Origin: an uncultured Rikenellaceae bacterium
Lineage (GTDB): Bacteria > Bacteroidota > Bacteroidia > Bacteroidales > VadinHA17
Direction of reading: 5' to 3'
Assembly (NCBI GenBank): GCA_964387565.1
Contig: CAYLYN010000005.1
Coordinates: 1 to 57,470, forward strand
DNA length: 57,470 nt
Part shown: positions 1 through 15,412 of the stretch, in pieces
Position numbering within the stretch: position 1 is the stretch's first letter
How the letters are laid out: the number at the start of each line of letters is the position of its first letter
Notes under the pieces: model-generated
The model's database searches: none
Seen by the model: the letters and a program-made list of their open reading frames with translations, nothing else
What the model was told of the DNA's origin: nothing
Program-made: the position numbers and the translations under genes

Positions 1-1143
1 ATGTCTGCCGTCCCTCCTGATACACCTGTTACAACACCGGTTGCTGATCCGACAGTTGCCACTCCCGTATTCAGGCTCGTCCATTCTCCCCCGCCTGTGG
101 CATTCGAAAGGGTTGTTGTTGATCCTGTGCATACTTCTGCTGTACCTGTTATGGCTGCAGGAAGAGGGTTTACTGTCACTTCGGCATCTGATGATGTAGC
201 TGAAACACAAATCCCGTTACTTACAACTGCCCTGTATTTAGTTGAAACAGTAAGATTCATTGCAGTGTATGTAGTGGCTGTATTGGCAATATCGGTGGAA
301 GAACCCCAGTTGTTTGTTGAATACTGCCATTTCTCTACTGTGCCTGTATGACCCGATAATGTAAGTACTGTGCTGTTCGTACCTGAACATACTGAAGCAT
401 CTCCTGTAACATCACCTCCAACAGAGGCTGCGTAAACTGTAACTGTCTGTGTTACATAACAACCTGTGGCTGTAATTGTATATTTGATATCGGCAGTGCC
501 ACCTGAAACACCTGTTACAACACCGGTTGCTGATCCGACAGTGGCAACTCCGGTATTAAGGCTGGCCCATTCTCCACCGCCTGTAGCATTTGATAGTGTC
601 GTTGTGGATCCAACACATACCTCGGCTGTGCCTGTTATGGGATCGGGCAGAGGGTTGACTGTTACTTCGGCATCGGTTGACGTTGCAGAAGAACATACTC
701 CACTCTTCACTACTGCCCTGTATTTGGTGGTCAAAGTAAGGTTAGTGGCTGTATAAGTTAAATTTGTATTACTTATATCAATTGGAGTTGTCCAGTTGTC
801 AGTTGAATACTGCCACTTCTCAACCGAACCTGTATGACCTGACAATGTTAGCACTGTACTGTTCGTACCTGAGCAAACTGCTGCATCTCCGGTAACATCT
901 CCTCCTACCGATGCAGGATCAACAGTAACTGATTGTGTAACAAAGCAGCCTGTGGCTGTAATGGTATATTTAATGTCAACAACACCTCCTGAAACACCTG
1001 TCACAATACCGGTTCCTGAACCAACAGTAGCTATTAAATCATCCAAACTGCTCCATGTGCCCCCACCTGTGGCATCAGCCAGTGTTGTTGTTGATCCTAC
1101 ACATACCTCAGCTGTACCCGTAATTGCGGCCGGAAGGGGATTG
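1..1143. repeat. Tandem coding repeats with a period of 486 bp (162 aa), about 2.3 copies inside the adhesin gene. The array continues beyond the window edge.
   Basis: The string cctgtggc occurs at 463-470 and again at 949-956, exactly 486 nt apart. The two full copies translate to near-identical module pairs, with most residues identical by eye. The three + strand shadow ORFs are also mutually similar. Confidence 0.85.
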
Positions 1144-1496
1144 ACTGTCACTGTAGCAACTGACGATGGATTTGGCCCACAATCAGCTGAAACAGAAGTA
1201 ATAACGCAATAATAATAAAATGTTCCTGCCGCAGAAGTATTAGGAGAATAAGTATCAGTTTGTGCTCCGTCTCCAGATCCAAGACTTGTTCCACCAGTAT
1301 TTGAATTTGTGGTATTCGAATACCACTGATAAGTATATCCTCCTGTACCACCTGAAGCAGATACAATTAGACTCACAGTCTCCCCGGCACATATAGTAGT
1401 GGTAGCTGCAGGTCCGGTAATAGTACAATCAACAGCGGATGCACTGAAAAAACCTGCCAACAAACTCAGTATTAATATTAAAATTCGCTTTTTCAT
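1..1496 (-). CDS. Secreted multi-repeat Ig-like/Big_2-like surface adhesin. Only the N-terminal 498 codons are present because the ORF runs off the left edge. It is absent from the supplied ORF track because there is no stop in the window.
   Basis: I translated the minus strand by hand from the ATG at 1496. It reads MKKRILILILSLLAGFFSASAVDCTITGP (signal peptide) and stays open to position 3. Two module types alternate. One is Big_2-like: ITGTAEVCVGSTTTL..GGG.W.S....ATV....G.VTGVSGG.ADIKYTITATGC. The other is Ig-like: GHTG.VEKWQYS......YRAVV..G.C.SATS.DAEVTVNP. The + strand ORFs 1-351, 466-756 and 952-1212 are antisense shadows of it. Confidence 0.8.
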   Translation of the reverse strand, partial: MKKRILILILSLLAGFFSASAVDCTITGPAATTTICAGETVSLIVSASGGTGGYTYQWYSNTTNSNTGGTSLGSGDGAQTDTYSPNTSAAGTFYYYCVITSVSADCGPNPSSVATVTVNPLPAAITGTAEVCVGSTTTLADATGGGTWSSLDDLIATVGSGTGIVTGVSGGVVDIKYTITATGCFVTQSVTVDPASVGGDVTGDAAVCSGTNSTVLTLSGHTGSVEKWQYSTDNWTTPIDISNTNLTYTATNLTLTTKYRAVVKSGVCSSATSTDAEVTVNPLPDPITGTAEVCVGSTTTLSNATGGGEWASLNTGVATVGSATGVVTGVSGGTADIKYTITATGCYVTQTVTVYAASVGGDVTGDASVCSGTNSTVLTLSGHTGTVEKWQYSTNNWGSSTDIANTATTYTAMNLTVSTKYRAVVSNGICVSATSSDAEVTVNPLPAAITGTAEVCTGSTTTLSNATGGGEWTSLNTGVATVGSATGVVTGVSGGTAD

Positions 1497-1548
1497 CTAC
1501 CTTTCATTTTCTCAGGTCATATTGAGGTAAAATTAAATACCTGGCTGA

Positions 1549-2802
1549 TCAGAACCTGAATTTTAATAAACTGATCATAGAATTACTCTCATATCTGTCT
1601 ATACCGACAGCATAAATATTTCCTGCTTCGTCTGATATTACATCATTAACCGACTGGCTCCCCGTACTTCCAAAAATGACTTGTTTTCCTGGTAAAAGGT
1701 TGCCTTCATCATCAGTAATAAAAACTATCATCCTGGAAGAACTTCCGCTACCGGCCTGACCAGCCATCACAAAGTAACTGGTCTTATACCTTGCAATGGA
1801 ATGGATTGAAAAAGAGACAGCGGATCCGGATGAGGATTCTATAGTTATAGCATGCTCATAAACCGGCTCCTCAAAGATATTCCGCTGCAATTCCCATACA
1901 TAGGCACTCTGGCCCGATGCTTCCGTACCATTAGTGGAAACAACCAGGTAACCATCGTCAAGCACTTCAATATCAGCTGCATTCTCCTCAGCAACGCCTC
2001 CTATTATCCTTTGCTGGTTGAAATTTCCCTGTAAGTCAATCTTTACCAGAAGGATATTATTAAGGCTCTGTAAATCAGATGTCTTTTGTGAATTGTCAGT
2101 TGTTGCAAGGACTATATATCCGCCACCGATATCCTCTTTTATTGTTACAGCATCATCATTCCCCGGGTAACCTGCGGCCCAGTTGCCGGTTTCCGACAGA
2201 TTATTATCAAGTTTCATCACAAGGATATCTTTCTTCCCTGCCACGTTCCCTGACGATTCAGTGGTGGCAACCCTATCTGCATCTGTTACACCCAGTACAA
2301 TAAATCCCCACGATGTCTTAAGCAGATCAACAGCATACTGATTATAATTATCGCCCGTTTTTTTATATACCTTTTGTGAGATAAGGCTACCCTGACCATC
2401 TGTCTTAACTATATATACATCCTTAAGTTTTGTTACGGCATCAACGGAATATCCCACACAGACAACAGACCCGTCATCAAGCACTACTGCCTTTGAACCA
2501 ACATTATATGATTCGTCTCCATAAAGATATTTCCATATCTGTTCCCCGTTATTATCAACTTTTATAAGCCCCAGCCTTTTAGAGGATTCTGCAGTGCTTA
2601 TCCTGTTTTCACCTTCAGTTCTTCTGACATCAGTGAGCTGCCCGGAAATAATAAACCCATCCCCGGCTTTTGCAATCCCGTAACCGATATCTTCCATGGC
2701 ATCACCATAGATCCTTACTATATTATTATTGATATCATCAGTCTTCCTGCATGAAGAGATAACAGCTGAAAACATCAATGTAAATAAAATTAACTTTCTC
2801 AT
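1549..2802 (-). CDS. Lipoprotein of unknown function with beta-propeller-like internal repeats
   Basis: The N-terminus MRKLILFTLMFSAVISSCRK is a signal II/lipobox-like sequence with Cys. A blade-like pattern recurs: LIKVDNNGEQIW, YIVKTDGQG, ILVMKLDNN, ILLVKIDLQGN, SLLKFRF. The stop lies 52 nt upstream of the adhesin start. Confidence 0.6.
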   Translation of the reverse strand: MRKLILFTLMFSAVISSCRKTDDINNNIVRIYGDAMEDIGYGIAKAGDGFIISGQLTDVRRTEGENRISTAESSKRLGLIKVDNNGEQIWKYLYGDESYNVGSKAVVLDDGSVVCVGYSVDAVTKLKDVYIVKTDGQGSLISQKVYKKTGDNYNQYAVDLLKTSWGFIVLGVTDADRVATTESSGNVAGKKDILVMKLDNNLSETGNWAAGYPGNDDAVTIKEDIGGGYIVLATTDNSQKTSDLQSLNNILLVKIDLQGNFNQQRIIGGVAEENAADIEVLDDGYLVVSTNGTEASGQSAYVWELQRNIFEEPVYEHAITIESSSGSAVSFSIHSIARYKTSYFVMAGQAGSGSSSRMIVFITDDEGNLLPGKQVIFGSTGSQSVNDVISDEAGNIYAVGIDRYESNSMISLLKFRF

Positions 2803-2805
2803 GAC

Positions 2806-3876
2806 CTACTGGTTCTTTTTTGAAGGTTTATAGAAGATCTGAGTATAACCGATGCTGAAATTCAGTGTGTTAATATTGAAATCATCATCAGCCAAATGAT
2901 AAGAACTAAGTTCGGCAGAACTGTGATCTGCCGTCGGAAGTGATGGCCTTACAGTCTGATTAAAGAGTCCGAAACCGGAACGGGCTTCTGCAAAAATATA
3001 ACCGCCTCTGGTCTTAAGTTTTACTCCTGCACCTGCCTGACCGAAAATATCCAGTGCTATCCTGGCATCCCTGCGGTTTATATCCGGACCTGTAACAGGC
3101 TGTCCGTTAATATCGGATGGACTAAATTCAGCTGTTGCAGTTGAGGAAAGCAAAATTGCAGGACCGGCACCCAGACGAACATAAGGTGTGATCTTTCCGA
3201 AATTCTTTATGTTATAATTTACAGAAACAGGTACTTCGATCCTGCTCTGCCGTTCATTATATTGCGATGTCCCGATGTTGAGTATCTTTTCTGTTTTTGT
3301 GAATGCGACCTGTGAGAATCCGGCTTCAGCATTCAGTTCAATTTTGCCTGTGAGCCTGAATTTTGCTTCAAGTCCACCGTACAGGTTCAGGGCATTAAAC
3401 GTGTACTGGCCTTCAGAAGAATTTCCCGATACTGACCGGTGGTCTATGAATGTGGTAAAGGGAAGATTGGTACCTAACCTTAGAGATATCTGTACAACAG
3501 GATCTACCTGAAAATTATTGTAAAGGTGAACAAACGAAGAATGATCCGTTTCACTTAGCTGATACTCCGGGTTTCTTTTAAGAAAATTGAGCATTGCTGA
3601 ATCGGCCTTTTCAAGCTCATCTTCAAACAGGTAGGTCTGAATGATAAGTTTATAAGCAGCCAGTGACTCTTCACGGTTAAATCCTGATTTAAGACACTCC
3701 TGAAGCAATCCGGCCACCTGCTCAACCTGGCCCCTGTCAAACAGGTTCTGCGCAGTCTGCAGCTTTTCGGCGCAGCTTCCAGCTTCTGCCTCCTGAGCCG
3801 ATAAAGCTACCGGGAAACAAGCCAGGAACAACAAGATGAGGCAATTTCGGATAAGACACTGAAAGAAAATTTTCAT
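2806..3876 (-). CDS. Outer-membrane protein with a signal peptide, a short TPR-like helical region and a beta-barrel
   Basis: The signal ends ...FPVALSAQE. Residues around 35-110 are helical and TPR-like (AQNLFDRGQVEQVAGLLQECL...AAYKLIIQTYLFEDELEKADSAM). The C-terminal two thirds show an alternating amphipathic beta pattern ending TLNFSIGYTQIFYK. There are only 3 nt between its stop and the next gene's start. Confidence 0.6.
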   Translation of the reverse strand: MKIFFQCLIRNCLILLFLACFPVALSAQEAEAGSCAEKLQTAQNLFDRGQVEQVAGLLQECLKSGFNREESLAAYKLIIQTYLFEDELEKADSAMLNFLKRNPEYQLSETDHSSFVHLYNNFQVDPVVQISLRLGTNLPFTTFIDHRSVSGNSSEGQYTFNALNLYGGLEAKFRLTGKIELNAEAGFSQVAFTKTEKILNIGTSQYNERQSRIEVPVSVNYNIKNFGKITPYVRLGAGPAILLSSTATAEFSPSDINGQPVTGPDINRRDARIALDIFGQAGAGVKLKTRGGYIFAEARSGFGLFNQTVRPSLPTADHSSAELSSYHLADDDFNINTLNFSIGYTQIFYKPSKKNQ

Positions 3877-3978
3877 GTGTAAATTATTTTAATTCACAGG
3901 TCACATGGAACCCACATGCAGATAGATTTTTCATGTTTTTTTGTGTTTTAGAACATGAGGGTTTCATCACAGTTATCC

Positions 3979-6900
3979 TTATTTAATTGGATTCATTTTA
4001 ATATTCAGACTCTTTTCAGGACAGGTCTTCTCAAGAGGAATATCCCTGCCAACATAGGTATTCCATTCATCCTGGGTCATATTACGCGAAAGCTTGTTAC
4101 ATACATCCTGTACCAGGTTATCAACGTGTGCAGGACGGCTCACAAGGTTCTCCTTATCATCATAGGAACCTGATACAATAAGCTGCCCGTCAGGACTGAA
4201 CTGTATTACCATAACGAACTTTTCATGGTCATTAAAGGTTAAAGGAGGTTCAGTAAGATCAGTGATATCTTTAATATTGAATATTTTAAGCGTCTGATCG
4301 TTACTTGCGGTTGCCATCTGCTTAAGCCTGTTATTGAACTGTATATCATTAACCTGAGCGGTATGCGCTTTTACATCTGATATTTTTCTGCGCTGAATTA
4401 TATCCCATAGTTCAACTGTTCCGTTAACATCTCCAAGTGCCAGAATATTATTGTCAGGATTAAACCTCACTACTTTTATGTTTTTACCAACTGTTTCAAT
4501 CCTGAAATTATCTGCTTTATTTTCCTGGTTCCATACCACAACTCCTCCTTCACTATTTATCCCGGCTACATATTTTCCGTTAAGTGAAACATCAATAGAT
4601 GTAAGAGGCAAAGTACCATCAGTCAAATTTGAACTGGTCCGTGCCGATAGATCCCATTTAAGAACTTTTCCATCAAGCGAAGCTGAATAGAGATACTTAC
4701 CGTCATAAGAGAAAATAAGTGACTTAAGTTTACCCTTGTGCCCGGTCATCTCATATCCCTGACTGTTCCCTTTAAGTGACACCATTTTAATTGACGCATT
4801 ACTGCTACCCATGGCAAGCCATGAAGCATCAGGGCTCACTGTCAGAACCTCAATTATATCTGTTCCGGAGTATACTATCTGAAGTGACTGATCCTCTCCG
4901 TCGAGCGACCATTTCAATACCTTCCCGTCATATCCTGAGGTGAAGAACTCCCGTTTGCCGGGAACAAATGCAATACTTCTTATTCCACCTGTGTGGCCGT
5001 GGAACGATTTATAGTTTACATTTCCATAGTTTTTGGCGACATTATAAAGCCCGGCATAGATATCAGCATCGTTATCAATGCCTCCGTTATTCTTGTTAAA
5101 TATATAAGCCTGGTATGCAAGCAGAGACTGAAGGTCTTTCTGCCCCTGTACCTGTAATGACTTTATTGACATGGACTTACCTATTGACAGCATCCTGAGT
5201 CTGAGAGCAGCATTTCTCTGTTCAAGGGCAGTCTGTGCATTCTGGTCAGCTCTTAAACTTGCTCTCTTGGCAGAATCAGATTGTTCAAGTGCTATCTGCT
5301 GTTGCTGTAAAGCATAAGCCTCATTTTCAACTGCCAGTTTTCTCTGGGCTTCGGCAAATATCCTCTGCCGCTCCGCTTCTTCAGCATTCCTTGTAGCTAC
5401 TGTGGCGTTTGAGTCTGCCACTACCCTTGCTTCAATAGCTTCAACTGTAGATGAGTCAGCTCTTACCTTTTCTCTTTCAGCCTGTATCCTTCTCTCCTCA
5501 GCAAGTACCGTCTGCCTGTCGGCAGCAATCTTCTGAACGAAGGCAAAGAGCATGAATCCGACAGAAATGATAGCTGCAACTCCAAGGATCAGGGCAACAA
5601 TCCTTGTCCTTCTCATCTGCCGCTTCTGCAGTCTGATCTTATTCTCTTCCTCTTCCAGGTACTCCTTCTCACTTGTCCGCAGATAGACCATTGCACGTTC
5701 AAATGCCGGGTTATACCTTTCGGCCCATGCAAGTGTGGGCTTATGCTTATCGCGCCAGTTTATTGCAAGCTGAAGGTCAGGTGGTCTCCACAGACTCGTC
5801 TTGCCCTGCTGGTACATCGCCGAAGCTTCCGAAAGCCTTAAATACATCTGCACTGATGCAGCCTCATCATCGACCCACTCCCTGAGCCTGTCCCATAAAC
5901 GCATAAGACTTTCGTGTGACAGATCGATAATGGAATTATCATCAAGAGACACATTCTGCCTTGGTGTAATAAATGATCTTGATGGTATCCTGAATTTCTC
6001 AACCACTTCAAAAAGATCCTCACTTGTACATCCTGCAATGGATTTTATTTCAGTTACGGAAGAGGGGTGACGCAGACCTTTGTTATCTGAACCTTTTTCT
6101 GTTATTGTTTTGAACATAATTTCGCAAACCTCCCTGCCTTTAGGGCTAAGCTCTTCATAAGCTTCGTTTGCATGCAGCGACATCGCATCGCTCATTGTTC
6201 CAACCGAGTCATAATCGGTCTTATCAATAGGTCTGTCAGGATCATCAAGTTCCTGCCAGCGGTTCCAGGTTCTCATCATAGCATGCTGAAGAACAGGCAG
6301 CTGATCAGTTCTGTCACCAATGTCCTTTAGAAGTATTTCTACCAGTCTGGGATCGATCTTAGCCCCGGCATAATTCACAGGACCTGTTATAGCTTCCCGG
6401 TAGTTTTCAGTCCCCATATGAGGGACGAGATAATTGCTGTTGTTTATTAATTGTGTAAGCCCCTGATAATGTGCACATTCTCCAATAAAATCGGAACGCA
6501 TTGTAACTATTGTGAAAACATTAACAGCGCTCTGGCCCACGGAATTTACAACACAATCAACGAATTTTGCAGTTGCTGCATGACTTGAATCACCTTTACC
6601 TAGTGAACTGTAGCGGAATAACTCTTCAAACTGGTCGACAACAATCAAAACCTTTCCCCCATCTCTCTGTATCATCTTTCTGACAGCTTCCGTAATTCCA
6701 TCCGGACTGGTGAGAAGCTCTTTCATAATGTTTTCTTTCTTTGCTGCCATGCCAGAGCCATTAGCAGATCCCTCTGCCATTGCCTCAGCCAGATTTCCAA
6801 AAGGATCATTCCCCGGTCTGAAAGATATTATCTTCCATGGTCCTGAATTACTTGTATCAAGCTTTCTTACCCTGGGTAAAACGCCGCAGTAGATGAGAGA

Positions 6901-7074
6901 AGATTTACCGCTTCCTGAGGCTCCTATTACTGTAACAAACCTGTTATTCAACAGTTTGCCCAATACTTCCTCACTCTCACCAGCCCGGCCGAAAAAGAGA
7001 TCACTCTCTTCCGGGGCAAAAGGTCTCAATCCGGGGAAGGGATTGAATTTCTTTGTTTCTGTTATCGGACCCAT
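3979..7074 (-). CDS. STAND-class P-loop NTPase (NACHT/nSTAND-like) with a winged-helix-like region, a single TM helix, a long coiled coil and WD40 repeats
   Basis: The N-terminal motif is NPFPGLRPFAPEESDLFFGRAGE. Walker A is VIGASGSGKSS and Walker B is VLIVVDQFEELF. A hydrophobic helix IVALILGVAAIISVGFMLFAFV sits near aa 490-510 (nt ~5545-5610) and is preceded by KRQMRRTR. A Q/A/E/R-rich heptad region of roughly 130 aa follows. WD40 units include HGHTGGIRSIAF..SGYDGKVLKWSL, TGHKGKLKSLIFS..SASLDGKVLKWDL and AHTAQVNDIQF..TASNDQTLKIFNI. Confidence 0.8.
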   Translation of the reverse strand: MGPITETKKFNPFPGLRPFAPEESDLFFGRAGESEEVLGKLLNNRFVTVIGASGSGKSSLIYCGVLPRVRKLDTSNSGPWKIISFRPGNDPFGNLAEAMAEGSANGSGMAAKKENIMKELLTSPDGITEAVRKMIQRDGGKVLIVVDQFEELFRYSSLGKGDSSHAATAKFVDCVVNSVGQSAVNVFTIVTMRSDFIGECAHYQGLTQLINNSNYLVPHMGTENYREAITGPVNYAGAKIDPRLVEILLKDIGDRTDQLPVLQHAMMRTWNRWQELDDPDRPIDKTDYDSVGTMSDAMSLHANEAYEELSPKGREVCEIMFKTITEKGSDNKGLRHPSSVTEIKSIAGCTSEDLFEVVEKFRIPSRSFITPRQNVSLDDNSIIDLSHESLMRLWDRLREWVDDEAASVQMYLRLSEASAMYQQGKTSLWRPPDLQLAINWRDKHKPTLAWAERYNPAFERAMVYLRTSEKEYLEEEENKIRLQKRQMRRTRIVALILGVAAIISVGFMLFAFVQKIAADRQTVLAEERRIQAEREKVRADSSTVEAIEARVVADSNATVATRNAEEAERQRIFAEAQRKLAVENEAYALQQQQIALEQSDSAKRASLRADQNAQTALEQRNAALRLRMLSIGKSMSIKSLQVQGQKDLQSLLAYQAYIFNKNNGGIDNDADIYAGLYNVAKNYGNVNYKSFHGHTGGIRSIAFVPGKREFFTSGYDGKVLKWSLDGEDQSLQIVYSGTDIIEVLTVSPDASWLAMGSSNASIKMVSLKGNSQGYEMTGHKGKLKSLIFSYDGKYLYSASLDGKVLKWDLSARTSSNLTDGTLPLTSIDVSLNGKYVAGINSEGGVVVWNQENKADNFRIETVGKNIKVVRFNPDNNILALGDVNGTVELWDIIQRRKISDVKAHTAQVNDIQFNNRLKQMATASNDQTLKIFNIKDITDLTEPPLTFNDHEKFVMVIQFSPDGQLIVSGSYDDKENLVSRPAHVDNLVQDVCNKLSRNMTQDEWNTYVGRDIPLEKTCPEKSLNIKMNPIK

Positions 7075-7091
7075 AATTAATAATTTCCGTA

Positions 7092-9074
7092 CTAAACTCT
7101 AACTCCTATCACCAGGATATCATCTATCTGTTCATTATCTCCTTTCCATTCATTAAGTCTGCGGTTAAGAGCCTCTTTCTGCTGGCTCATTGGCAGGGAA
7201 TGCACTTCAAGGAGAAGTTCCTGAAACCTCCTGAGCATGAATTTTTTATTATCCGGACCGCCAAACTGGTCGGGATATCCATCGGAAAACATATAAATAC
7301 AATCTCCATCAATAATATCTATCATATTGTTTGAAAATGGTTTAGGAACACCACCCTCATATACTCCGATAGGGTATCTGTCGCCTTTGTATAAGGTAAC
7401 CTCATCATTTCTGATCATTACCATAGGATTGTTTGCCCCGGCAAATTCCAGTTTTTTTGCTTCCAGATCAAAGATACAGAGGGCCATATCCATACCGTCC
7501 TTGATAGAATTCTCTGAGAGATTTTCATTAAGTGTATTGATGACACCTGCATTTAGTTCATCCATAATTGAGGCAGCAGACCTGGCTTTCTTTACGCTTA
7601 CGGCATAGTTAAGCTGGTTAAACCCTACAATCGACATAAATGCACCAGGCACTCCATGCCCGGTACAGTCTACAGCAGCTATCATGCATAAACCATCTAC
7701 ACCATTCATCCAGTAAAAATCACCGCTGACAATATCCTTGGGCAGATAAAGTACAAAGTATTCACTGAAACAGGCATCGATAACATTAAATGACGGCAAT
7801 ATTGCATTTTGTATCCTTCTGGCATAATAAATGCTGTCCATAATGTGCTTTTTCTGCTCTTCAATCTCCTCTTTTTGCTTTTCTATCTTCTCAGTCCTTT
7901 CCTTCACCTTCTCCTCCAGCTCATAGGTATAACTTTCAAGCTGGGCAATCATCATATTGAATTTCTCTGTAAGCCTTGTTATTTCGTTATTGCCTGAAAC
8001 CTCTGCTCTCTCTCTCAGATCACCGTTTGTGATCCTGTCAACATTCTCAACAAGCTTCTTTATAGGCAGAGTTATAACCTTTGTTTTGCGGTATATCACT
8101 CCGCTAAGTACCAGCATTGTTACAAAAAATACCAGGATAAACCTGAGTGCCTCATTCCTGAAGAGCTCCTGCTGGGCAGTCCGGTCAGAAATGATCCTGA
8201 TAACCGAACCCTTGTACAGGCTAGAACTGGATTTATCCTTGCCTGTTGCACGTTCCATATAGATATAATTGTAATGATACCACTTATCACCCTCCTGCTG
8301 CATTAGCTCAATGGTATCCTTGTACTGAAATACCTGCAGCAGCATATCGTCCTGGTTATCAATCCTCAGAACATTTTTATTCATGCTGAAAGGTTCGTCA
8401 GCCATCAGGAATAGTTCGACATCAATAATCCCTTCAGTTTCACTTTTCAATTCAGCCTTGGTATCTTCAATAGCCTGGACGATATCGTCCACCTGTTTTG
8501 AATAGGCTCCAAGCTCAATAATATATTTCTTATCACGGGTAGCCTGGTAGGAGAATTTCTTAGGCCTTTTGGTCGCCTGTTCAATAGCAAACAGTTCTGA
8601 AACAAATTCACCTGATTTCTGTATATCCTGCAGGGTTTTTTTCATATTCTCCCCGAGGGAAAATAGATTAAAACCCAGGTCTTGTTTGAAGGTAGTATTT
8701 ATGATTACCCCGTCGGATGAAATAATATAGATATCCTCATTCTGGTTATCCATTCCTATCTCATCAGCAATTTTAACCAGATCAGCTTTCTCAATACCAT
8801 CAGTATTTGCAAAATATCTATCGACAAGCAGAGAGCTCAGTTCCCTGAACCTGTTATTATACTGATCATCAATAATATTCGTGGCAATATCCTGAAATTT
8901 AAGAATTTTAGTGACCTCATTTGCCAGCAGTTTATTTTTCTCATCAGTACCGGTACTGAGAATTGAACGTGTACGTGTAAAATTGATTCCTGCAATAACA
9001 AGAAGAGCAACAACAGTGGGTATTGCTATATTGAAAATGAACTGCCGGAATATTGTCGTCTTTCTCAGGGCCAT
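7092..9074 (-). CDS. Membrane sensor PP2C (SpoIIE/RsbU-type) serine phosphatase with TM1, an extracytoplasmic Cache-like domain, TM2, HAMP, a coiled coil and a PPM domain
   Basis: There are two TM helices: FIFNIAIPTVVALLVIAGINF and ALRFILVFFVTMLVLSGVIY. The HAMP-like segment is LPIKKLVENVDRITNGDLRERAEVSGNNEITRLTEKFNMM. The PPM motifs are RRIQNAILP, SGDFYWM, AAVDCTGHGVPGAFMS and MFSDGYPDQFG. Its stop is 17 nt from the STAND gene start. Confidence 0.8.
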   Translation of the reverse strand: MALRKTTIFRQFIFNIAIPTVVALLVIAGINFTRTRSILSTGTDEKNKLLANEVTKILKFQDIATNIIDDQYNNRFRELSSLLVDRYFANTDGIEKADLVKIADEIGMDNQNEDIYIISSDGVIINTTFKQDLGFNLFSLGENMKKTLQDIQKSGEFVSELFAIEQATKRPKKFSYQATRDKKYIIELGAYSKQVDDIVQAIEDTKAELKSETEGIIDVELFLMADEPFSMNKNVLRIDNQDDMLLQVFQYKDTIELMQQEGDKWYHYNYIYMERATGKDKSSSSLYKGSVIRIISDRTAQQELFRNEALRFILVFFVTMLVLSGVIYRKTKVITLPIKKLVENVDRITNGDLRERAEVSGNNEITRLTEKFNMMIAQLESYTYELEEKVKERTEKIEKQKEEIEEQKKHIMDSIYYARRIQNAILPSFNVIDACFSEYFVLYLPKDIVSGDFYWMNGVDGLCMIAAVDCTGHGVPGAFMSIVGFNQLNYAVSVKKARSAASIMDELNAGVINTLNENLSENSIKDGMDMALCIFDLEAKKLEFAGANNPMVMIRNDEVTLYKGDRYPIGVYEGGVPKPFSNNMIDIIDGDCIYMFSDGYPDQFGGPDNKKFMLRRFQELLLEVHSLPMSQQKEALNRRLNEWKGDNEQIDDILVIGVRV

Positions 9075-9084
9075 CAGATAAATA

Positions 9085-12000
9085 TTACGCTTCGTTACTA
9101 TTTATGTAATTAAAAATTTCAATTGAGCTTTCCGGAAATTGATAATCAAAATCCTCTGCTACAGCAAGTGAAAGGGAATAGAAGGATCCTGTCCCTTTGT
9201 TTCCACCCGCAAATTCTTTCTCATCCAACTTGCCTTCATAATGAATAATCACTTTCCCATTTCCCTGTTTCTGTGAAACAGGCCAGATAATGGAATTATC
9301 CATTATGACTGAAGAAAGTGTTGGAAAATCCTTGTGAAACCGCAGATTTTCTGCAAGAGTAAGTATTTCATCCTCCAGAATCCCGGGGAAGCACTTCGTC
9401 AGGAACAAAGTCTTCTCAAAAAGCAACTCTTCGCCTGCCACTTCTCTTCCGGCTATCTGGTCGAGCCTGCTTCTGGCTGTGGCAGGCAGGCGAGGCGAAA
9501 CTGATTTGTATAGCTCTTTTCCTGTTCCTGAAACAATCCTTACAGCCTCTTCGCGCAGAATTTCCTCCGGACTAAAAAGAAGGGCAACCACTGATTCAGT
9601 CAATGCTTCGTCTTCTATCTCTCTTATGCTCCTGAGAACAGAAGCTTTTGTCCAGATGCTTACAAGGTTATAGTCACGGTTTATTATATCCTCAATCAGT
9701 CTTTTATATTCCGGCACCTCAACAGGGAAGAACTGGAAAAGATTCTTAAGCTTTTCCTCATCAGGAACGGCATCGACGAGCATTATCAGTTTCTGCTTTA
9801 TGGATTCATCTATCACTATATCAATCATCTCCAGTGCGAAGTTGACACTTTCAACAGTTTCACTGTCAAGATTTTCCTGTATTTTTACTATAGATCCTTT
9901 GTCGTAAGAAATTGACAGAAGGTTAAAAAGATAACGTCTCCATCGGGATATCTCCTTATTAATAACCTTCAGGAGCACCTGGTCATTATTTTTTTCAATG
10001 CTCCTCCTGGCTGAAAGATTCCATGTCATAATCCCGATTGTCTCTGTTATGAGTTGGTGAAGCTTATCTTTCTCCTCCATTGAAGGGCTGAAGTCTATAT
10101 CAAGAAGACATTTCAGGGCAAGTTCCTTAAGCTGCCTCGAATTTGACCATAACCGGGAAAAGAGAAATAGCCTTGTCTCCGGAGTATTTATCTTTCCAAG
10201 GAGCCTTAATATTGTCATGCTTGTATTAATATTGCCAGAGGAAGCAAGATAAAATCTCTCCAGCTCTTCCCCTGCCTCATTGCCGAAAGTCTTGAGTACA
10301 GCAAATGCATCAGTCTCCAGGCCTTTGAAATTCAGGCACTCACAAACTTCCGGAAGCATATCCTTAAGCTTAAATTTTCCTATCAGGAAAACACCCATCC
10401 TCTTAGCCTCTAATGAGTTATCGCGCAACAACCTGAGAATCTCTGTTGTTTGAGGCATTCTGGATCCTTCAAGTACTTTTCTCGCCGAAACAAGTTTATC
10501 TGATCCTGTTCTGCCGGCTGAAGAAATTTCCTCAAGTCGTTTCAGCAGTTCTCCGGCAAGCCGTCGGTTATTATCATCTATCGTCCCAAGACTATTCACT
10601 TTCCTGAGTACCGGTACTAGTGTTGTGTCATTCCCTGAGGATGAATGATCAATAATCTTCCTGAAATACCATTTGTTTATTCCACCTTCAAGGGTGGAAA
10701 AATCGCCTGAAATAAGATTAAAATAATCCTTTCTGAAAGCACTCTCTGCGGCAAATCTGCTATTTAGCTCTGCTTTAAAGACTCCCTGATCGGGTAAAAC
10801 ACTTTCCTCAGTAGTTTCAAGAGCTTTCCTGATGGACTTTCGGTACTCATTATAAAGCATCACTGCAACAAATACCCAGATTATTATGAATATGAAGAGT
10901 ACCCATGAAAAATGAATGAGCTTAATAAAACTCAGAACACCCATTCCGGCAAGGATCAGACCTGATGAAAGAGCGGCTATTTCATTTACAGTACCATCCA
11001 TTACCGATTGAATCTCATACCTTATCTTCTCATTTATGGTCTGATATATCACTTTGAATGAAGGTGATTCAATAGAATCTTTAAGTGATTTGGAGAATAG
11101 CCTGCTAAGAGCAAGCAGAAGGAAAAAAATGATGAATCCACTGGCAGCTTCAGGAGTATATCCCATTGTCATCCCGATGATTATGGCAACAGCAGTAAAC
11201 ACTGCAACCAGAACCGGAGAAATTGCGAGGCAGGTTCTCAGACCATAATTTCTTATGAGATAAGAGAATACCAGAAGCTTTACAAGAAGAGTAAAGATCA
11301 TCATGGAACCTGTAAATATTCCAAGGAACCTGGCCATATCTTCCTCTGCCGGATACTGGGCCCTTGTAACTGCCATAAAAGAATACTGTACAAAGAATGC
11401 CGTAATAACAGAAAGCGCCACAAATATCCCCATTACCCTTGTGTACCTGTCTTCCCTGAAAGTTGCAATAACTGATTTCTTCTTCTCTTTTTCACCGGGC
11501 AGTTTCTCTTCCTTTCCTGAAACAAAACTGAATCTTGATCCTATGATTATCTGTACAATTGTAGCTAACAGAACTGATAAGGCGCTAATAAGCAGAATAT
11601 TATGAGACTCGAACCGGAAAGCCAGCAATACAGGAATTGTGTAACAACTTATAATTATCCCAATTACCAGTCCTGCATCAACCAGACCGAACAGCCTTTT
11701 ACCCTGCCTCAGAGTAAATAAACGTCCTGCTGTTCCCCAGAACCCCAGAGCAGCAAGAATATTGAGAGGGCCAAGCATAATAAAAACAAGAAAGATCACC
11801 CATTTCGCAGAAAAGAGGATTACAGCAGTCCACAGCAACAAGCTCAGTATTGTAACAAAAGCAAGGTTAAGGATTGCGAAGTTTCTGAATTTCATTCTTG
11901 TCTGTAATCCGGTATAGAGGGCTGTAAGAAATATTCCTGCAAAACCGGAAACCACATAACCCCGGGCCATCATCTTCTCATCAAATATCGAAAGGAAAAG

Positions 12001-12126
12001 CGAGTGAGCGCTGATGTCAAATGCACCGAAAAAAATACCTAAAAAAACAGATTGGGTAAGAAGCATTAAAACCATAGATTCCTCACCGGATTCAATTCCA
12101 AGTGCAGAAAGCAGTTTTTCTCTCAT
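9085..12126 (-). CDS. Large fusion protein with an N-terminal ~12-TM transporter-like domain (MFS/TLC nucleotide-carrier-like), HEAT/ARM-like repeats and a C-terminal cNMP-binding-like domain
   Basis: About 430 aa are very hydrophobic, with around 12 predicted helices. A ~450-aa helical-repeat region follows. The last ~120 aa (LFEKTLFLTKCFPGILEDEILTLAENLRFHKDFP...IIHYEGK) resemble a cyclic-nucleotide-binding fold. Its stop is 10 nt from the PP2C gene start. The domain calls are by eye only. Confidence 0.55.
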   Translation of the reverse strand: MREKLLSALGIESGEESMVLMLLTQSVFLGIFFGAFDISAHSLFLSIFDEKMMARGYVVSGFAGIFLTALYTGLQTRMKFRNFAILNLAFVTILSLLLWTAVILFSAKWVIFLVFIMLGPLNILAALGFWGTAGRLFTLRQGKRLFGLVDAGLVIGIIISCYTIPVLLAFRFESHNILLISALSVLLATIVQIIIGSRFSFVSGKEEKLPGEKEKKKSVIATFREDRYTRVMGIFVALSVITAFFVQYSFMAVTRAQYPAEEDMARFLGIFTGSMMIFTLLVKLLVFSYLIRNYGLRTCLAISPVLVAVFTAVAIIIGMTMGYTPEAASGFIIFFLLLALSRLFSKSLKDSIESPSFKVIYQTINEKIRYEIQSVMDGTVNEIAALSSGLILAGMGVLSFIKLIHFSWVLFIFIIIWVFVAVMLYNEYRKSIRKALETTEESVLPDQGVFKAELNSRFAAESAFRKDYFNLISGDFSTLEGGINKWYFRKIIDHSSSGNDTTLVPVLRKVNSLGTIDDNNRRLAGELLKRLEEISSAGRTGSDKLVSARKVLEGSRMPQTTEILRLLRDNSLEAKRMGVFLIGKFKLKDMLPEVCECLNFKGLETDAFAVLKTFGNEAGEELERFYLASSGNINTSMTILRLLGKINTPETRLFLFSRLWSNSRQLKELALKCLLDIDFSPSMEEKDKLHQLITETIGIMTWNLSARRSIEKNNDQVLLKVINKEISRWRRYLFNLLSISYDKGSIVKIQENLDSETVESVNFALEMIDIVIDESIKQKLIMLVDAVPDEEKLKNLFQFFPVEVPEYKRLIEDIINRDYNLVSIWTKASVLRSIREIEDEALTESVVALLFSPEEILREEAVRIVSGTGKELYKSVSPRLPATARSRLDQIAGREVAGEELLFEKTLFLTKCFPGILEDEILTLAENLRFHKDFPTLSSVIMDNSIIWPVSQKQGNGKVIIHYEGKLDEKEFAGGNKGTGSFYSLSLAVAEDFDYQFPESSIEIFNYINSNEA

Positions 12127-12242
12127 TATTTCCCCTTTAGAATTTAATGAAAGCTAAATTAAGAATTTAATCCATAAAAGGTTACGGAATCCCCTTTTTT
12201 TTGACAAACTGCGCATTTTTGTATACCAGCTTGCACTGGTTT

Positions 12243-12776
12243 CTATGCTTCTCTATCCAGTTTTGAAATAATAAGAACTTTAAGCGAACTTAGATCAAGA
12301 TTATAACCATCAACAATAATGTGAGATTTTTCATACCATCCTGCCCTTTCCGACAGCTTACTTACAATATATTGCAGGAGTCTGTCCCCTGTGAGATTTG
12401 TAATAAGAGGTCTTTCATCAGATGATCTTTTAAGTCTGCCTGCAAGCTGCGATGGAGTGAGTTTCAGATATACTGTCAGACCCGAATTATTCATAAATTC
12501 CATATTACCATTGTAGCATGGCGCCCCGCCTCCTGTAGCCACAATAGTATCAGATTCGGGACTCAGGGCTCTTAGAGTTTCCGCTTCAATTTCCCTGAAA
12601 TGGTCTTCACCATGATCAGCAAATATTTCAGGAATAGTCTTACCTGTATGCTCTTCAATTCTTTTGTCAAGATCAATAAAAGACCAACCAAGTGAAGCTG
12701 CCAGCTTCTTTCCTGCGGTAGTTTTTCCGCTTCCCATAAACCCGATGATATAAAGTATATGGATTCCGGGCATCAC
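12243..12776 (-). CDS. aroK: Shikimate kinase
   Basis: Contains IIGFMGSGKTTAGKKLA, DLD and the typical ~175 aa length. Its start overlaps the parC stop by 4 nt. Confidence 0.9.
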   Translation of the reverse strand: MMPGIHILYIIGFMGSGKTTAGKKLAASLGWSFIDLDKRIEEHTGKTIPEIFADHGEDHFREIEAETLRALSPESDTIVATGGGAPCYNGNMEFMNNSGLTVYLKLTPSQLAGRLKRSSDERPLITNLTGDRLLQYIVSKLSERAGWYEKSHIIVDGYNLDLSSLKVLIISKLDREA

Positions 12777-15400
12777 AATTCCAGTTTCATCTGTGCCGGA
12801 TCATCTCCAGGTCCCGGCTGAGGAGGAGTTTCTTCCTCATCCTTAGGAATAACTGAAGGCATAGCTTCCTTCTTAACTACCGGCTCAATTTCCTGAATAT
12901 TGTCAACCATATAGCTTGTCAGCCTCTTTCCTTTGGCTTTATAGCTTTTAACCCCTATAAATTCAGCTACTTCAATTATTTCATTATCCCTGCTCTTGTG
13001 CTTCCCTCCGAAATGAATTTCAAATCTTGGATATTCAACTTCTGTAATACTAATAAGCCTTGACTCAGGATCCTCATTTATAAAGCATTGGGGCTTTTCC
13101 GACTCTTCGATCATGAACCGTTTGACATAATAGAACTTTTGTTCGGCATCCCAGTAAACGACTGAATAGACTTTACCAGGTTTATATTTTTCAATAAGCA
13201 GAATATTGTCCTCGAAATGATTTGACAGATCAAAGCCGGTAATCCGGAAATATCCGTTTTTGGTAATTACCTGTATTTTATCCTCTGCACTGAACTCGCC
13301 GAGGAATGTTCCCCTGCCATCCACATTCAGCCTGAAAACGGCATCATCAAACCATATTTTCCTACCGCCAAGTGTTGAAAGACCCTTCTCTTTGAGTGCT
13401 ATCTTGTGAACAGCATTCCTGGTGAGTATATTTCCCATTGAAGACTTTCCCTTAATGTTCATCTGCCCGAAATCAAATTCAAAGACAAGCTTTTTAAGTC
13501 TCGCTTTTGGTTTATGATGGACTCTTATGACTTCAGCTTCACCGTTTGGATTAACACTCAGGTAAACAATCCTGGAGCCCTGGGTCCCCCTTGTCAGATT
13601 ATATTCCTTGTCACGGGTAAGTCCGGTAATTGCACATCGTTTTGCCAGGAGAGGGCCATCCCTTCCGTCCTGGTAAACGATATTGTAGATTGTCCTTTCG
13701 TCATTCTTAAGAAATACCTGTGCATAAAGAATATCGGTACCCACAAAGACCTTTTCAGAAACCTTTGTTATAAGATATCCTCCGTCTTTCCTGATTACAA
13801 TTATATCATCAATATCAGAGCAGTCGCAGACAAATTCATCTTTCCTGAGCGCTGTACCCAGAAAGCCTTCCTTGTAGTTAATGTAAAGTTTGGCATTGTT
13901 GGCAACAACTTTCGTTGCTTCAATAGTATCAAAACTTCTGATCTCAGTTTTACGTTCTCTCCCCTTTCCGTATTTTTTCCTGATCTGCTTGAAATAATTT
14001 ATGGCAAAGGGAATAATGTTTTTAAGGTGATTTTTCACCTCTTCAAGTTCGCTCTCAATTCCTTTTATATGCTCATCAGCTTTTTTGACATCATATTTTG
14101 AAATCCTTTTTATCCTGATCTCTGTCAGCTGAATAATATCTTCCCTCGTAACCTCCCTGAGAAGCAGTTTCTTATATGGCTTCAACCCTTTATCGATCGC
14201 AGCAATAACACCTTCCCATGTATCAACCTCTTCTATATCCCTGTAGATCCTTTTCTCTATGAAGATCTTTTCGAGTGAAGACATGTGCCATTCTTCCTGC
14301 AATTCGTCCCTTCTGATTTCAAGTTCCTTCCTGAGCAGTTCAACAGTTTTATCAGCCGAATGCTTAAGGATAGTGCTGACACCCATGAAAGAAGGCTTAT
14401 CATCAACAATTACGCAGGTATTTGGTGAAATTGAGTATTCGCAGTCGGTAAGTGCATAAAGGGCATCGATGGTTTTATCGGGTGAGACCCCGGGAATAAG
14501 ATGAACAACAATCTCAACATCAGAAGAGGTGTTGTCATCTATTTTTTTGATCTTTATCTTTCCCTTTTCATTCGCTTTAATAATTGATTCAATAAGGGTG
14601 CTTGTCGTTTTTCCATAAGGTATCTCCTTAATAACCAGCGCCTTTTTGTCAATCTTATCTATCTTTGCCCTGACTTTAATGACACCTCCCCTCTGACCGT
14701 CATTATATTTTGATACATCTATTAATCCACCGGTCGGAAAGTCAGGATATATAACGAAATCCCTTCCCTCCAGGTAGTCAATTGAAGCATCAATAAGCTC
14801 ATTGAAATTATGCGGTAGTATTTTAGATGCAAGTCCGACTGCAATACCTTCGCCTCCCTGGGCAAGTAGCAGCGGAAATTTTACAGGAAGTGTTACTGGT
14901 TCCTTATTTCTTCCATCGTATGATAATTTCCATTCTGTTGTTTTTGAATTGAAAACCACCTCAAGTGCGAATTTGGATAGCCTGGCTTCAATATAACGTG
15001 GTGCAGCCGCACCATCACCGGTAAGCAGGTTACCCCAGTTTCCCTGGGCCTCAATTAAAAGATCTTTCTGACCTAACTGAACCAGGGCATCACCTATTGA
15101 GGCATCACCATGTGGATGAAATTGCATTGTATGACCGATAATATTGGCCACTTTATTATAGCGGCCATCGTCCATGCGTTTCATGGAATGGAGGATACGT
15201 CTCTGTACCGGCTTAAGTCCGTCATTCAAATGAGGTACAGCCCTTTCAAGAATAACATATGAGGCATATTCAAGAAACCAGTCCTGGTACATTCCCGACA
15301 AAGCCGTAACAGAATGAAGAGCAACCGGCCCTTCCTGGTCCTGCTCCTTACCTTCATTTTTGTTTAATTCAAGATCCTTTTCTTCCATATAAAACTGCAA
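12773..15400 (-). CDS. parC: DNA topoisomerase IV subunit A (type IIA topoisomerase A subunit)
   Basis: Contains YVILERAVPHLNDGLKPVQRRILHSM and the catalytic-Tyr region AAPRYIEARLS. It is paired with a short (616 aa) B subunit immediately upstream. ParC rather than GyrA is inferred from that pairing and the subunit lengths. Confidence 0.85.
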   Translation of the reverse strand: MQFYMEEKDLELNKNEGKEQDQEGPVALHSVTALSGMYQDWFLEYASYVILERAVPHLNDGLKPVQRRILHSMKRMDDGRYNKVANIIGHTMQFHPHGDASIGDALVQLGQKDLLIEAQGNWGNLLTGDGAAAPRYIEARLSKFALEVVFNSKTTEWKLSYDGRNKEPVTLPVKFPLLLAQGGEGIAVGLASKILPHNFNELIDASIDYLEGRDFVIYPDFPTGGLIDVSKYNDGQRGGVIKVRAKIDKIDKKALVIKEIPYGKTTSTLIESIIKANEKGKIKIKKIDDNTSSDVEIVVHLIPGVSPDKTIDALYALTDCEYSISPNTCVIVDDKPSFMGVSTILKHSADKTVELLRKELEIRRDELQEEWHMSSLEKIFIEKRIYRDIEEVDTWEGVIAAIDKGLKPYKKLLLREVTREDIIQLTEIRIKRISKYDVKKADEHIKGIESELEEVKNHLKNIIPFAINYFKQIRKKYGKGRERKTEIRSFDTIEATKVVANNAKLYINYKEGFLGTALRKDEFVCDCSDIDDIIVIRKDGGYLITKVSEKVFVGTDILYAQVFLKNDERTIYNIVYQDGRDGPLLAKRCAITGLTRDKEYNLTRGTQGSRIVYLSVNPNGEAEVIRVHHKPKARLKKLVFEFDFGQMNIKGKSSMGNILTRNAVHKIALKEKGLSTLGGRKIWFDDAVFRLNVDGRGTFLGEFSAEDKIQVITKNGYFRITGFDLSNHFEDNILLIEKYKPGKVYSVVYWDAEQKFYYVKRFMIEESEKPQCFINEDPESRLISITEVEYPRFEIHFGGKHKSRDNEIIEVAEFIGVKSYKAKGKRLTSYMVDNIQEIEPVVKKEAMPSVIPKDEEETPPQPGPGDDPAQMKLEL

Positions 15401-15412
15401 TGTCAGATATTG

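Follow-up and report, generated by a model that had tools for sequence, protein, structure and literature searches.

Gene order at the locus and its conservation

The window analyzed here, a 57,470-nt stretch of DNA from an uncultured Rikenellaceae bacterium (GCA_964387565.1, contig CAYLYN010000005.1, positions 1 to 57,470), opens with six minus-strand genes arranged around an nSTAND1 NTPase with a transmembrane (TM) helix. In the direction of transcription, the open reading frames (ORFs) map to positions 9085-12126, 7092-9074, 3979-7074, 2806-3876, 1549-2802 and 3-1496 (genes 1 to 6, with products P0001 to P0006). They encode a nucleotide-transporter-type (NTT) membrane protein with a HEAT solenoid (1013 amino acids, aa), a membrane-bound PP2C phosphatase (660 aa), the STAND protein (1031 aa), an outer-membrane beta-barrel (356 aa), a beta-propeller lipoprotein (417 aa) and a large repeat protein whose frame is open at the contig start. 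The genes are separated by gaps of 10, 17, 102, 3 and 52 nt, and these coordinates agree exactly with the co-directional block outlined in the first-pass annotation of this DNA. As also described there, the block follows a housekeeping flank, aroK-parC-parE (12243-17263, minus strand), in which a shikimate kinase and the topoisomerase IV subunits A and B were identified and which lies outside the module. The start of the window coincides with the start of its contig (C5) in an assembly of 391 contigs that is 88.8% complete, and the STAND locus is present in this genome as a single copy.

The evidence presented here makes it very probable that the six genes represent a module of Bacteroidota that is conserved, vertically inherited and centered on an nSTAND1 NTPase spanning the membrane, in a local form with a PP2C gene and without a TIR-like gene. 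The conservation of the gene order in other genomes had been set beforehand as the decisive check on the proposed grouping. For this analysis, 30 STAND orthologs were compiled with up to 20 kb around each, and a further 80 loci from named Bacteroidales and Cytophagales, among them Marivirga tractuosa, Fulvivirga kasyanovii, Chryseosolibacter histidini and Ekhidna, were located by a pattern scan derived from the STAND alignment and examined with 10-kb flanks. ORFs were called and clustered in the resulting set of 110 loci, and a recurrent order was observed: NTT-HEAT gene, optional PP2C gene, optional TIR-like gene, STAND gene, barrel gene, lipoprotein gene and a gene for a large protein. The TIR-like protein spans ~480 aa and matches DUF4062, and the large protein exceeds 1000 aa in length, with most instances falling at ~1450-2600 aa. 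Median gaps between consecutive genes are 10 nt from NTT-HEAT to PP2C, 27 nt from PP2C to STAND, 5 nt from STAND to barrel, 2 nt from barrel to lipoprotein and 59 nt from lipoprotein to large protein. The upstream neighbor is aroK in the host genus and in some other Bacteroidales, and it belongs to at least nine other gene clusters elsewhere, as in Cytophagales and other families. Because the same order recurs behind differing flanks in other genera, other families and a second order, the block appears to move as a unit and the adjacency observed here is not specific to this strain. A fortuitous adjacency of the six genes was rejected on this basis.

All 24 genomes sampled from the genus contain an ortholog of the STAND protein, as do five of 16 other families of the order. 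Throughout the genus the position of the locus is fixed, between aroK-parCE and gpmI. A hidden Markov model (HMM) of the TIR-like partner returned no homolog in the host genome, at its 88.8% completeness, and the window hence carries the rarer form of the module, in which the PP2C gene is present and the TIR-like gene is absent. The ancestral form usually included the TIR-like gene as well. Two of the loci carry unexpected taxonomic labels, with module STAND proteins 64% (JBLNAO010000261.1, labeled Chloroflexota) and 43% (JBKHIH010000039.1, Thiohalospira) identical to the one in the window; both display the typical Bacteroidota gene order and are probably mis-binned Bacteroidota contigs.

Searches for regulatory elements identified no Rfam family in positions 1-12800. 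Neither promoters nor terminators were detected above their frequency in shuffled sequence by a scan that omits Bacteroidota-type promoters, and no terminator-like site was found inside any intergenic gap of the block.

Domain organization of the encoded proteins

The product of gene 3 (3979-7074) matches the nSTAND1 family (PF20703) over residues 12-425 (E 3.8e-92; 310 bits against a cut-off of 27.1) and contains C-terminal WD40 repeats. Its Walker A (G51-x-x-G-x-G-K57-S-S) and Walker B (D147-Q-F-E-E) motifs are intact and 98-100% conserved in an alignment of 105 orthologs, and both the family score and these motifs assign the protein to nSTAND1. A TM helix is predicted at residues 492-510, with a net charge of +5 in the 15 residues preceding it and +1 after it, and a single TM helix is likewise predicted in 96 of the 105 orthologs. 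The segment connecting this helix to the propeller comprises 129 residues (interquartile range 129-129), and two cysteines in the tail that follows the propeller, Cys992 and Cys1018, are conserved in 94% and 92% of the orthologs. These features fit a protein oriented with its N-terminus inside and its C-terminus outside, in which the WD40 propeller would be held in the periplasm on a coiled-coil stalk of fixed length. The nearly complete (~100%) conservation of the Walker motifs and, in the phosphatase described below, of the metal-binding residues suggests that both the STAND protein and PP2C are active enzymes.

Gene 2 (7092-9074) encodes a protein with TM helices at residues 12-28 and 312-328 that enclose a predicted periplasmic sensor domain of ~280 aa, followed by HAMP (E 5e-11) and SpoIIE-type PP2C (PF07228; E 9e-20, 71.9 bits against a cut-off of 25) domains. 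The PP2C motifs SGD452, D469-C-T-G-H-G, D598-G and D651-D652 are fully conserved in 24 module PP2Cs, and the protein thus presents both the domain match and the metal-binding aspartates of the PP2C/SpoIIE family. The earlier description of the ectodomain as Cache-like was not supported, since no Pfam match at E <= 10 was obtained beyond one at chance level and no PDB profile matched below E 0.03. This sensor (residues 1-310) is unique to gene 2 among the 17 PP2Cs encoded in the host genome and is 32-94% identical across all 23 module PP2Cs. It returned no match in a sample of 400 genomes of the phylum, which indicates that the PP2C-bearing variant is uncommon. A tree of the catalytic domain alone does not resolve whether the module PP2Cs have one origin; their orthology is settled by the sensor domain, which they share and which is unique to them. 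Gene 2 thereby appears to encode a phosphatase dedicated to the module.

The HAMP-PP2C half of gene 2 aligns with residues 303-657 of SiaA (NF038263; E 5e-77). Orthology to SiaA was nonetheless rejected, with a score of 260 bits against the NCBIfam cut-off of 700 and an alignment restricted to residues 305-660; the sensor domain is unrelated. The locus also differs from the SiaABCD and RsbU/SpoIIE partner-switching systems in lacking SiaB, SiaC, SiaD, a STAS protein and a kinase. The host genome encodes 17 SpoIIE-type phosphatases and 10 SiaC-type (DUF1987) proteins, the genes for the latter residing on other contigs, and these proteins make up a large phosphatase-centered signaling network. 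Several of its PP2C and SiaC/DUF1987 genes lie within a few kb of each other on the same contig (e.g. C146:8808-11209, C113 and C35), and a single HATPase_c_2 kinase passes the cut-off in this genome.

The product of gene 1 (9085-12126) contains 11 hydrophobic segments, the most frequent count among its orthologs being 12. The only Pfam hit in its membrane domain is a weak match to MFS_1. A profile built from the membrane domains of 26 orthologs matches plastid-type ADP/ATP carriers (9j3j, E 5e-20; 9j3n, E 1e-19), and two of these 26 family members match Pfam TLC directly. On the strength of this profile match, the membrane domain is assigned to the NTT/TLC nucleotide-transporter type. Modeling of residues 440-1013 with 55 aligned sequences yielded an alpha-solenoid that leads into a small alpha/beta domain, with a predicted local distance difference test score (pLDDT) of 89. 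The solenoid assignment is backed by a match between the family profile and HEAT-type alphaRep proteins (E 2e-33); Foldseek searches with the solenoid model returned generic HEAT/ARM proteins and no functional lead. The last ~120 positions of the family profile match the cyclic nucleoside monophosphate (cNMP)-binding domains of PKG and PKA (E 3.5e-24). In the window protein and in its genus, however, the alignment presents a gap of ~27 columns at the site of the phosphate-binding cassette of these cyclic nucleotide-binding domains (cNBDs), and inspection of other relatives did not reveal the cassette arginine either. A functional cNMP sensor was therefore rejected for the window protein. Of the original proposal of a 12-TM/HEAT/cNMP-like fusion, the HEAT portion was borne out by both the model and the profiles, the membrane portion was refined to an NTT-type domain with 11 segments, and the cNMP-like portion holds at the level of family homology but is degenerate in this protein.

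Fusions of NTT, HEAT and cNBD domains have been reported as monophyletic, widespread in bacteria and uncharacterized (Major, Embley and Williams 2017, Genome Biol Evol, PMC5381601). Gene 1 presents the same three-part architecture, with an NTT/TLC domain and a HEAT solenoid, and departs from that family in the loss of the cNBD cassette and, in part of the genus, of the NTT domain itself. That study draws no link between the fusion and STAND genes. In nearly all the loci compiled here, gene 1 adjoins the STAND gene or is separated from it only by the PP2C gene, the TIR-like gene or both.

Gene 4 (2806-3876) encodes a signal peptide, a helical head of ~95 aa (residues ~28-125) predicted to be periplasmic and an OMP_b-brl_2 barrel (E 1e-10). 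Gln28, assigned to the signal peptide, is fully conserved, and the Cys35/Cys61 pair of the head is present in ~89% of the sequences. The first-pass annotation had described an outer-membrane barrel with a TPR-like periplasmic head; the barrel and the helical head were recovered, and the TPR designation obtained weak support in gene 4 and slightly better support in a paralog. An HMM of the head matches only P0004 in the host genome. Among the 1116 ORFs of the loci, it matches exclusively barrels following STAND genes and one TonB-dependent receptor, also located after a STAND ortholog (E 3e-7). Full-length matches to head and barrel were obtained in five of 400 high-quality genomes of the phylum, all from one family, and the five top matches that were examined all have a STAND gene on one side and a lipoprotein gene on the other. 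A STAND gene from another class likewise precedes a TonB-dependent receptor bearing the head. These two receptors, from two distant lineages (L052, G032:C169; L172, G153:C43), span 865-886 aa, carry the Cys-pair head before the plug and take the place of the small barrel. Three distant STAND paralogs in the genus (~23-25% identity) are each followed by a barrel paralog.

The product of gene 5 (1549-2802) displays a lipobox cysteine, Cys18, that is invariant across orthologs. Its model is a 7-bladed propeller (pLDDT 92), and Foldseek ranks the propeller of CylK first (7fh7; E 1.5e-15, TMq 0.72). The lipoprotein gene always adjoins the barrel gene.

The 5' part of gene 6 (1-1496 of the window) encodes a signal peptide and Ig_7/Big_2 repeats, as identified with Pfam. 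Positions 16-1028 contain 2.1 copies of a 486-bp tandem module, and the copies are 77% alike rather than near-identical. The last 55 nt of another contig, C133, are identical to positions 1-55 of the window, and the reading frame continues over the join (C133:6165-12434). This exact, in-frame overlap indicates that the two contigs are neighbors and that the assembly was broken inside the repeat modules of the adhesin, the copy number of which may be collapsed at the join. The joined ORF encodes 2571 aa and ends in a Por_Secre_tail domain (C133:6172-6399), as do orthologs of 2179 and 2527 aa. On C133, the adhesin gene is followed by gpmI, a DUF gene and SusC, in the same order as in relatives. 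The host genome encodes SprA, the translocon of the type IX secretion system (T9SS), and in at least 28 of its proteins a sorting domain scores above the Pfam cut-off. The joined gene 6 product, with its C-terminal sorting domain, hence belongs among the T9SS cargo proteins of this genome. Identity to the nearest relative is 90-95% for the three inner proteins, 71% for the barrel, 65% for the lipoprotein and 41% for the adhesin, an outward-rising divergence that fits a surface-exposed sensing end.

Taken as a whole, these searches substantiate the remaining structural features of the first-pass annotation, namely the TM-anchored STAND/coiled-coil/WD40 protein, the HAMP and PP2C domains of gene 2, the propeller-like lipoprotein and the signal-peptide repeat adhesin, to which a sorting domain at the far end is now added. 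The annotation had further remarked on the lack of a kinase, a STAS protein or a classical effector in the block, and none was found among the domain matches of the six proteins.

A constant core and an optional shell

Comparison of the locus across the genus revealed two main forms at the same chromosomal site. The full form comprises aroK, NTT-HEAT, PP2C, STAND, barrel, lipoprotein, adhesin and gpmI, and the reduced form comprises aroK, (NTT-)HEAT, STAND and gpmI. The lipoprotein is found in 16 of 61 genus genomes and a barrel ortholog in approximately the same number (~16 of 61), the two genes being adjacent wherever both occur. The remaining genomes, many of them at least 95% complete, lack barrel and lipoprotein at any location. 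HEAT and STAND hence appear to form a constant core, and PP2C and the outer-membrane trio of barrel, lipoprotein and adhesin a jointly dispensable, optional shell.

When mapped onto the STAND gene tree of the genus, PP2C and the outer-membrane trio co-vary perfectly. At least four joint changes are forced by well-supported branches, and the most parsimonious count is six. Since PP2C lies upstream and the trio downstream of the retained STAND gene, each joint loss requires two separate deletions, and we read these joint losses as evidence that PP2C works with the outer-membrane unit. The NTT domain was lost within the genus in one clade and one further lineage, both devoid of the outer-membrane trio. 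In reduced lineages (L038, L040-L048 and L062-L064), the NTT domain is gone and a soluble HEAT protein of 575-594 aa is encoded directly upstream of STAND. One genome with the reduced form at the usual site also contains, on another contig, a second, partial STAND (G022:C29:289203-292699; residues 585-1015, 53% identity), followed by barrel and lipoprotein genes, which could be a second copy of the module or an assembly split.

Mode of action, alternative readings and significance

The nSTAND1 family was defined in predicted conflict systems (Kaur, Iyer, Burroughs and Aravind 2021, eLife, PMC8195603; PF20703). Among the passages of the supplement to that survey returned by our search, rows for Fulvivirga kasyanovii, Marinilabiales and Bacteroidales list 12 TM + cNMP, TIR+DrHyd and nSTAND1+TM+BetaPropeller, and in those passages the upstream half of the module is already in print, as table rows in a conflict-system survey. 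The same passages contain no PP2C beside nSTAND1, and the Bacteroidetes rows within them end at the STAND gene, barrel, lipoprotein and cargo not having been searched there as such. A full-text literature search returned no paper describing the whole module, an absence that is no proof of absence from the literature. The module is classed here as an nSTAND1 system with an undescribed envelope-spanning architecture, represented here by a rare PP2C-bearing form without a TIR-like gene. Relative to the conflict systems, it shares the NTPase family and, in the supplement passages cited, a listed architecture (nSTAND1+TM+BetaPropeller). It differs in that the STAND protein of the window has no fused effector or adaptor, its genome has no TIR-like gene, and the locus is a single-copy, vertically inherited part of the core genome rather than a variable defense island of patchy inheritance.

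A second point of comparison is cell-surface signaling. In such systems, as in this module, an outer-membrane barrel with an additional N-terminal periplasmic domain is encoded beside an inner-membrane protein that combines a large periplasmic part with a signaling part in the cytoplasm. In the two relatives with head-bearing TonB-dependent receptors, the head is placed ahead of the plug, just as the signaling domain is in the transducers of cell-surface signaling, and this correspondence favors a contact through which the head and the periplasmic portion of STAND would exchange a signal. Pfam scans of the head identified no match to the known signaling domain of those transducers. The locus contains neither a sigma nor an anti-sigma factor, and the window barrel is a small OMP_b-brl_2 protein with no plug instead of a TonB-dependent receptor, so that the combination of a TonB-dependent receptor carrying a signaling domain, an anti-sigma factor and an extracytoplasmic function sigma factor that defines cell-surface signaling is not found here. 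The inner-membrane partner would instead be an NTP-driven STAND switch. The layout of the STAND protein also recalls that of receptor Ser/Thr kinases such as PknD of Mycobacterium tuberculosis, in which a cytoplasmic signaling enzyme is connected by a single TM helix to an extracytoplasmic propeller sensor. In the module, however, a STAND NTPase takes the place of the kinase in the cytoplasm, and genes for dedicated outer-membrane partners accompany the propeller.

These parallels lead us to propose, tentatively, that the module operates by outside-in signaling, following the logic of cell-surface signaling systems; the contacts, the direction of signaling and the output are inferred. A surface unit formed by the T9SS adhesin, the propeller lipoprotein and the barrel would change state upon contact, adhesin load or adhesin damage, and the head of the barrel would pass this change to the WD40 propeller and its stalk. 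The cytoplasmic domain of STAND might then switch nucleotide state or oligomerize, with the HEAT/NTT partner carrying the output. PP2C would read the same periplasmic compartment and dephosphorylate a target encoded elsewhere, for which the SiaC-type proteins are candidates. Synteny, together with sequence features that fit a periplasm-spanning STAND, supports the earlier proposal of a single envelope-spanning functional module. The accompanying claim that no known template applies is upheld by the lack of PADLOC matches, the sub-threshold SiaA score of PP2C and the lack of sigma and anti-sigma factors at the locus. For the explanation as a whole, encompassing the identity of the module, its anatomy and its outside-in mode of working, we estimate a probability of about one half. 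Its most specific version is more doubtful. According to it, an NLR-like STAND would act as a receptor spanning the inner membrane and the periplasm, with its WD40 propeller docking the head of a barrel coupled to lipoprotein and T9SS adhesin; surface events would be converted into an NTP-dependent switch with HEAT/NTT and PP2C as output arms, and the whole would represent a new class of trans-envelope signaling in diderms.

Several observations weigh against this explanation. The barrel gene is preceded by a long gap of 102 nt, against a median of only 5 nt at this position in relatives, and the block may comprise two transcription units. The periplasmic placement of the WD40 domain is derived indirectly, from a single predicted TM helix, and the cNMP-like domain of gene 1 is devoid of its binding cassette in this protein. 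No output domain, be it a transcription factor, a cyclase or a kinase, is present in the module. Furthermore, about three quarters of the searched genus genomes keep HEAT and STAND and lack barrel, lipoprotein and PP2C at any location. The ratio of WD40 to NTPase divergence is 0.95 in the reduced form, as opposed to 1.29 in the presence of the outer-membrane trio, and all reduced forms retain the Cys pair. Because the WD40 domain stays constrained in genomes without the trio, it must have a role that does not need it, and a WD40 domain serving the outer-membrane trio exclusively was rejected.

The same genes could in principle work from the inside out, as an apparatus for the anchoring, positioning or quality control of one giant T9SS adhesin, in which the barrel and lipoprotein would keep the cargo at the surface and the STAND stalk would tether or license the complex from the inner membrane through its NTP cycle, without reporting signals inward. 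A giant T9SS cargo gene indeed follows the lipoprotein gene in nearly every locus reaching that far, the barrel, lipoprotein and cargo genes are gained and lost as one block, and the fixed length of the stalk would suit a structural spacer. The T9SS component PorE is moreover described as having periplasmic TPR and WD40 domains (PMC12773672). The persistence of HEAT and STAND under constraint in genomes lacking cargo and outer-membrane parts nevertheless speaks against such an apparatus, and the HAMP domain and private sensor of PP2C point to signaling. STAND NTPases are familiar as switches and are not known to act as motors or tethers, and we regard this alternative as unlikely.

A role in defense is less likely than signaling across the envelope from the cell surface. 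Under this hypothesis, the module would be an nSTAND1-type conflict or anti-phage system working at the envelope, with the surface protein or the barrel serving as phage receptor or decoy and STAND detecting adsorption or injection and triggering a response. The origin of the family in predicted conflict systems and the joint occurrence of 12-TM+cNMP, TIR+DrHyd and nSTAND1+TM+BetaPropeller in the Bacteroidetes rows among the supplement passages retrieved (PMC8195603) lend it some weight, as do the TIR-like (DUF4062) gene of most relatives and the fast evolution of the surface components. Conversely, the NTPase begins at residue 12, leaving no N-terminal effector or adaptor domain of the kind that marks such systems (TIR, caspase, trypsin, EAD and similar), and the TIR-like gene is missing from the host genome. 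None of the six proteins matches any PADLOC-DB v2 family at E <= 0.001, and a known defense system was rejected accordingly. The single-copy locus, its fixed core position by aroK-parCE and gpmI and its vertical inheritance with reduction in place likewise depart from what a defense role predicts, making it quite unlikely.

It is improbable that the locus consists of two or three units (the HEAT-STAND pair, PP2C and the barrel-lipoprotein-adhesin group) that have no physical or functional link and are neighbors by shared ancestry only. In favor of this reading, most of the genus has the core pair without the other genes, the gaps of 102 and 52 nt leave room for separate promoters, and much of the synteny evidence stems from related lineages of one phylum. 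Against it, the order is kept in two orders behind at least 10 different flanks, the head occurs only after STAND genes, even on a different type of barrel and beside distant paralogs, and PP2C and the trio, although non-contiguous, disappeared jointly at least four times.

In the established view, ATPases of the STAND/NLR type sense from within the cytoplasm and act in immunity and cell death. The ATPase of this module seems instead to be a core-genome component of the cell envelope whose sensor lies outside the cytoplasm and which has outer-membrane, lipoprotein and secreted surface partners of its own. If true, this would represent a new route by which diderm bacteria pass information or mechanical state over two membranes, and it would provide a first functional context for two groups of uncharacterized proteins, the NTT-HEAT-cNBD fusions and the TM-nSTAND1-propeller proteins. 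The genus constitutes a natural experiment in this respect, with full, reduced and minimal forms of the module at one chromosomal site, which makes the question amenable to testing by comparative genomics and, in the cultivable Cytophagales that carry the module, by genetics.

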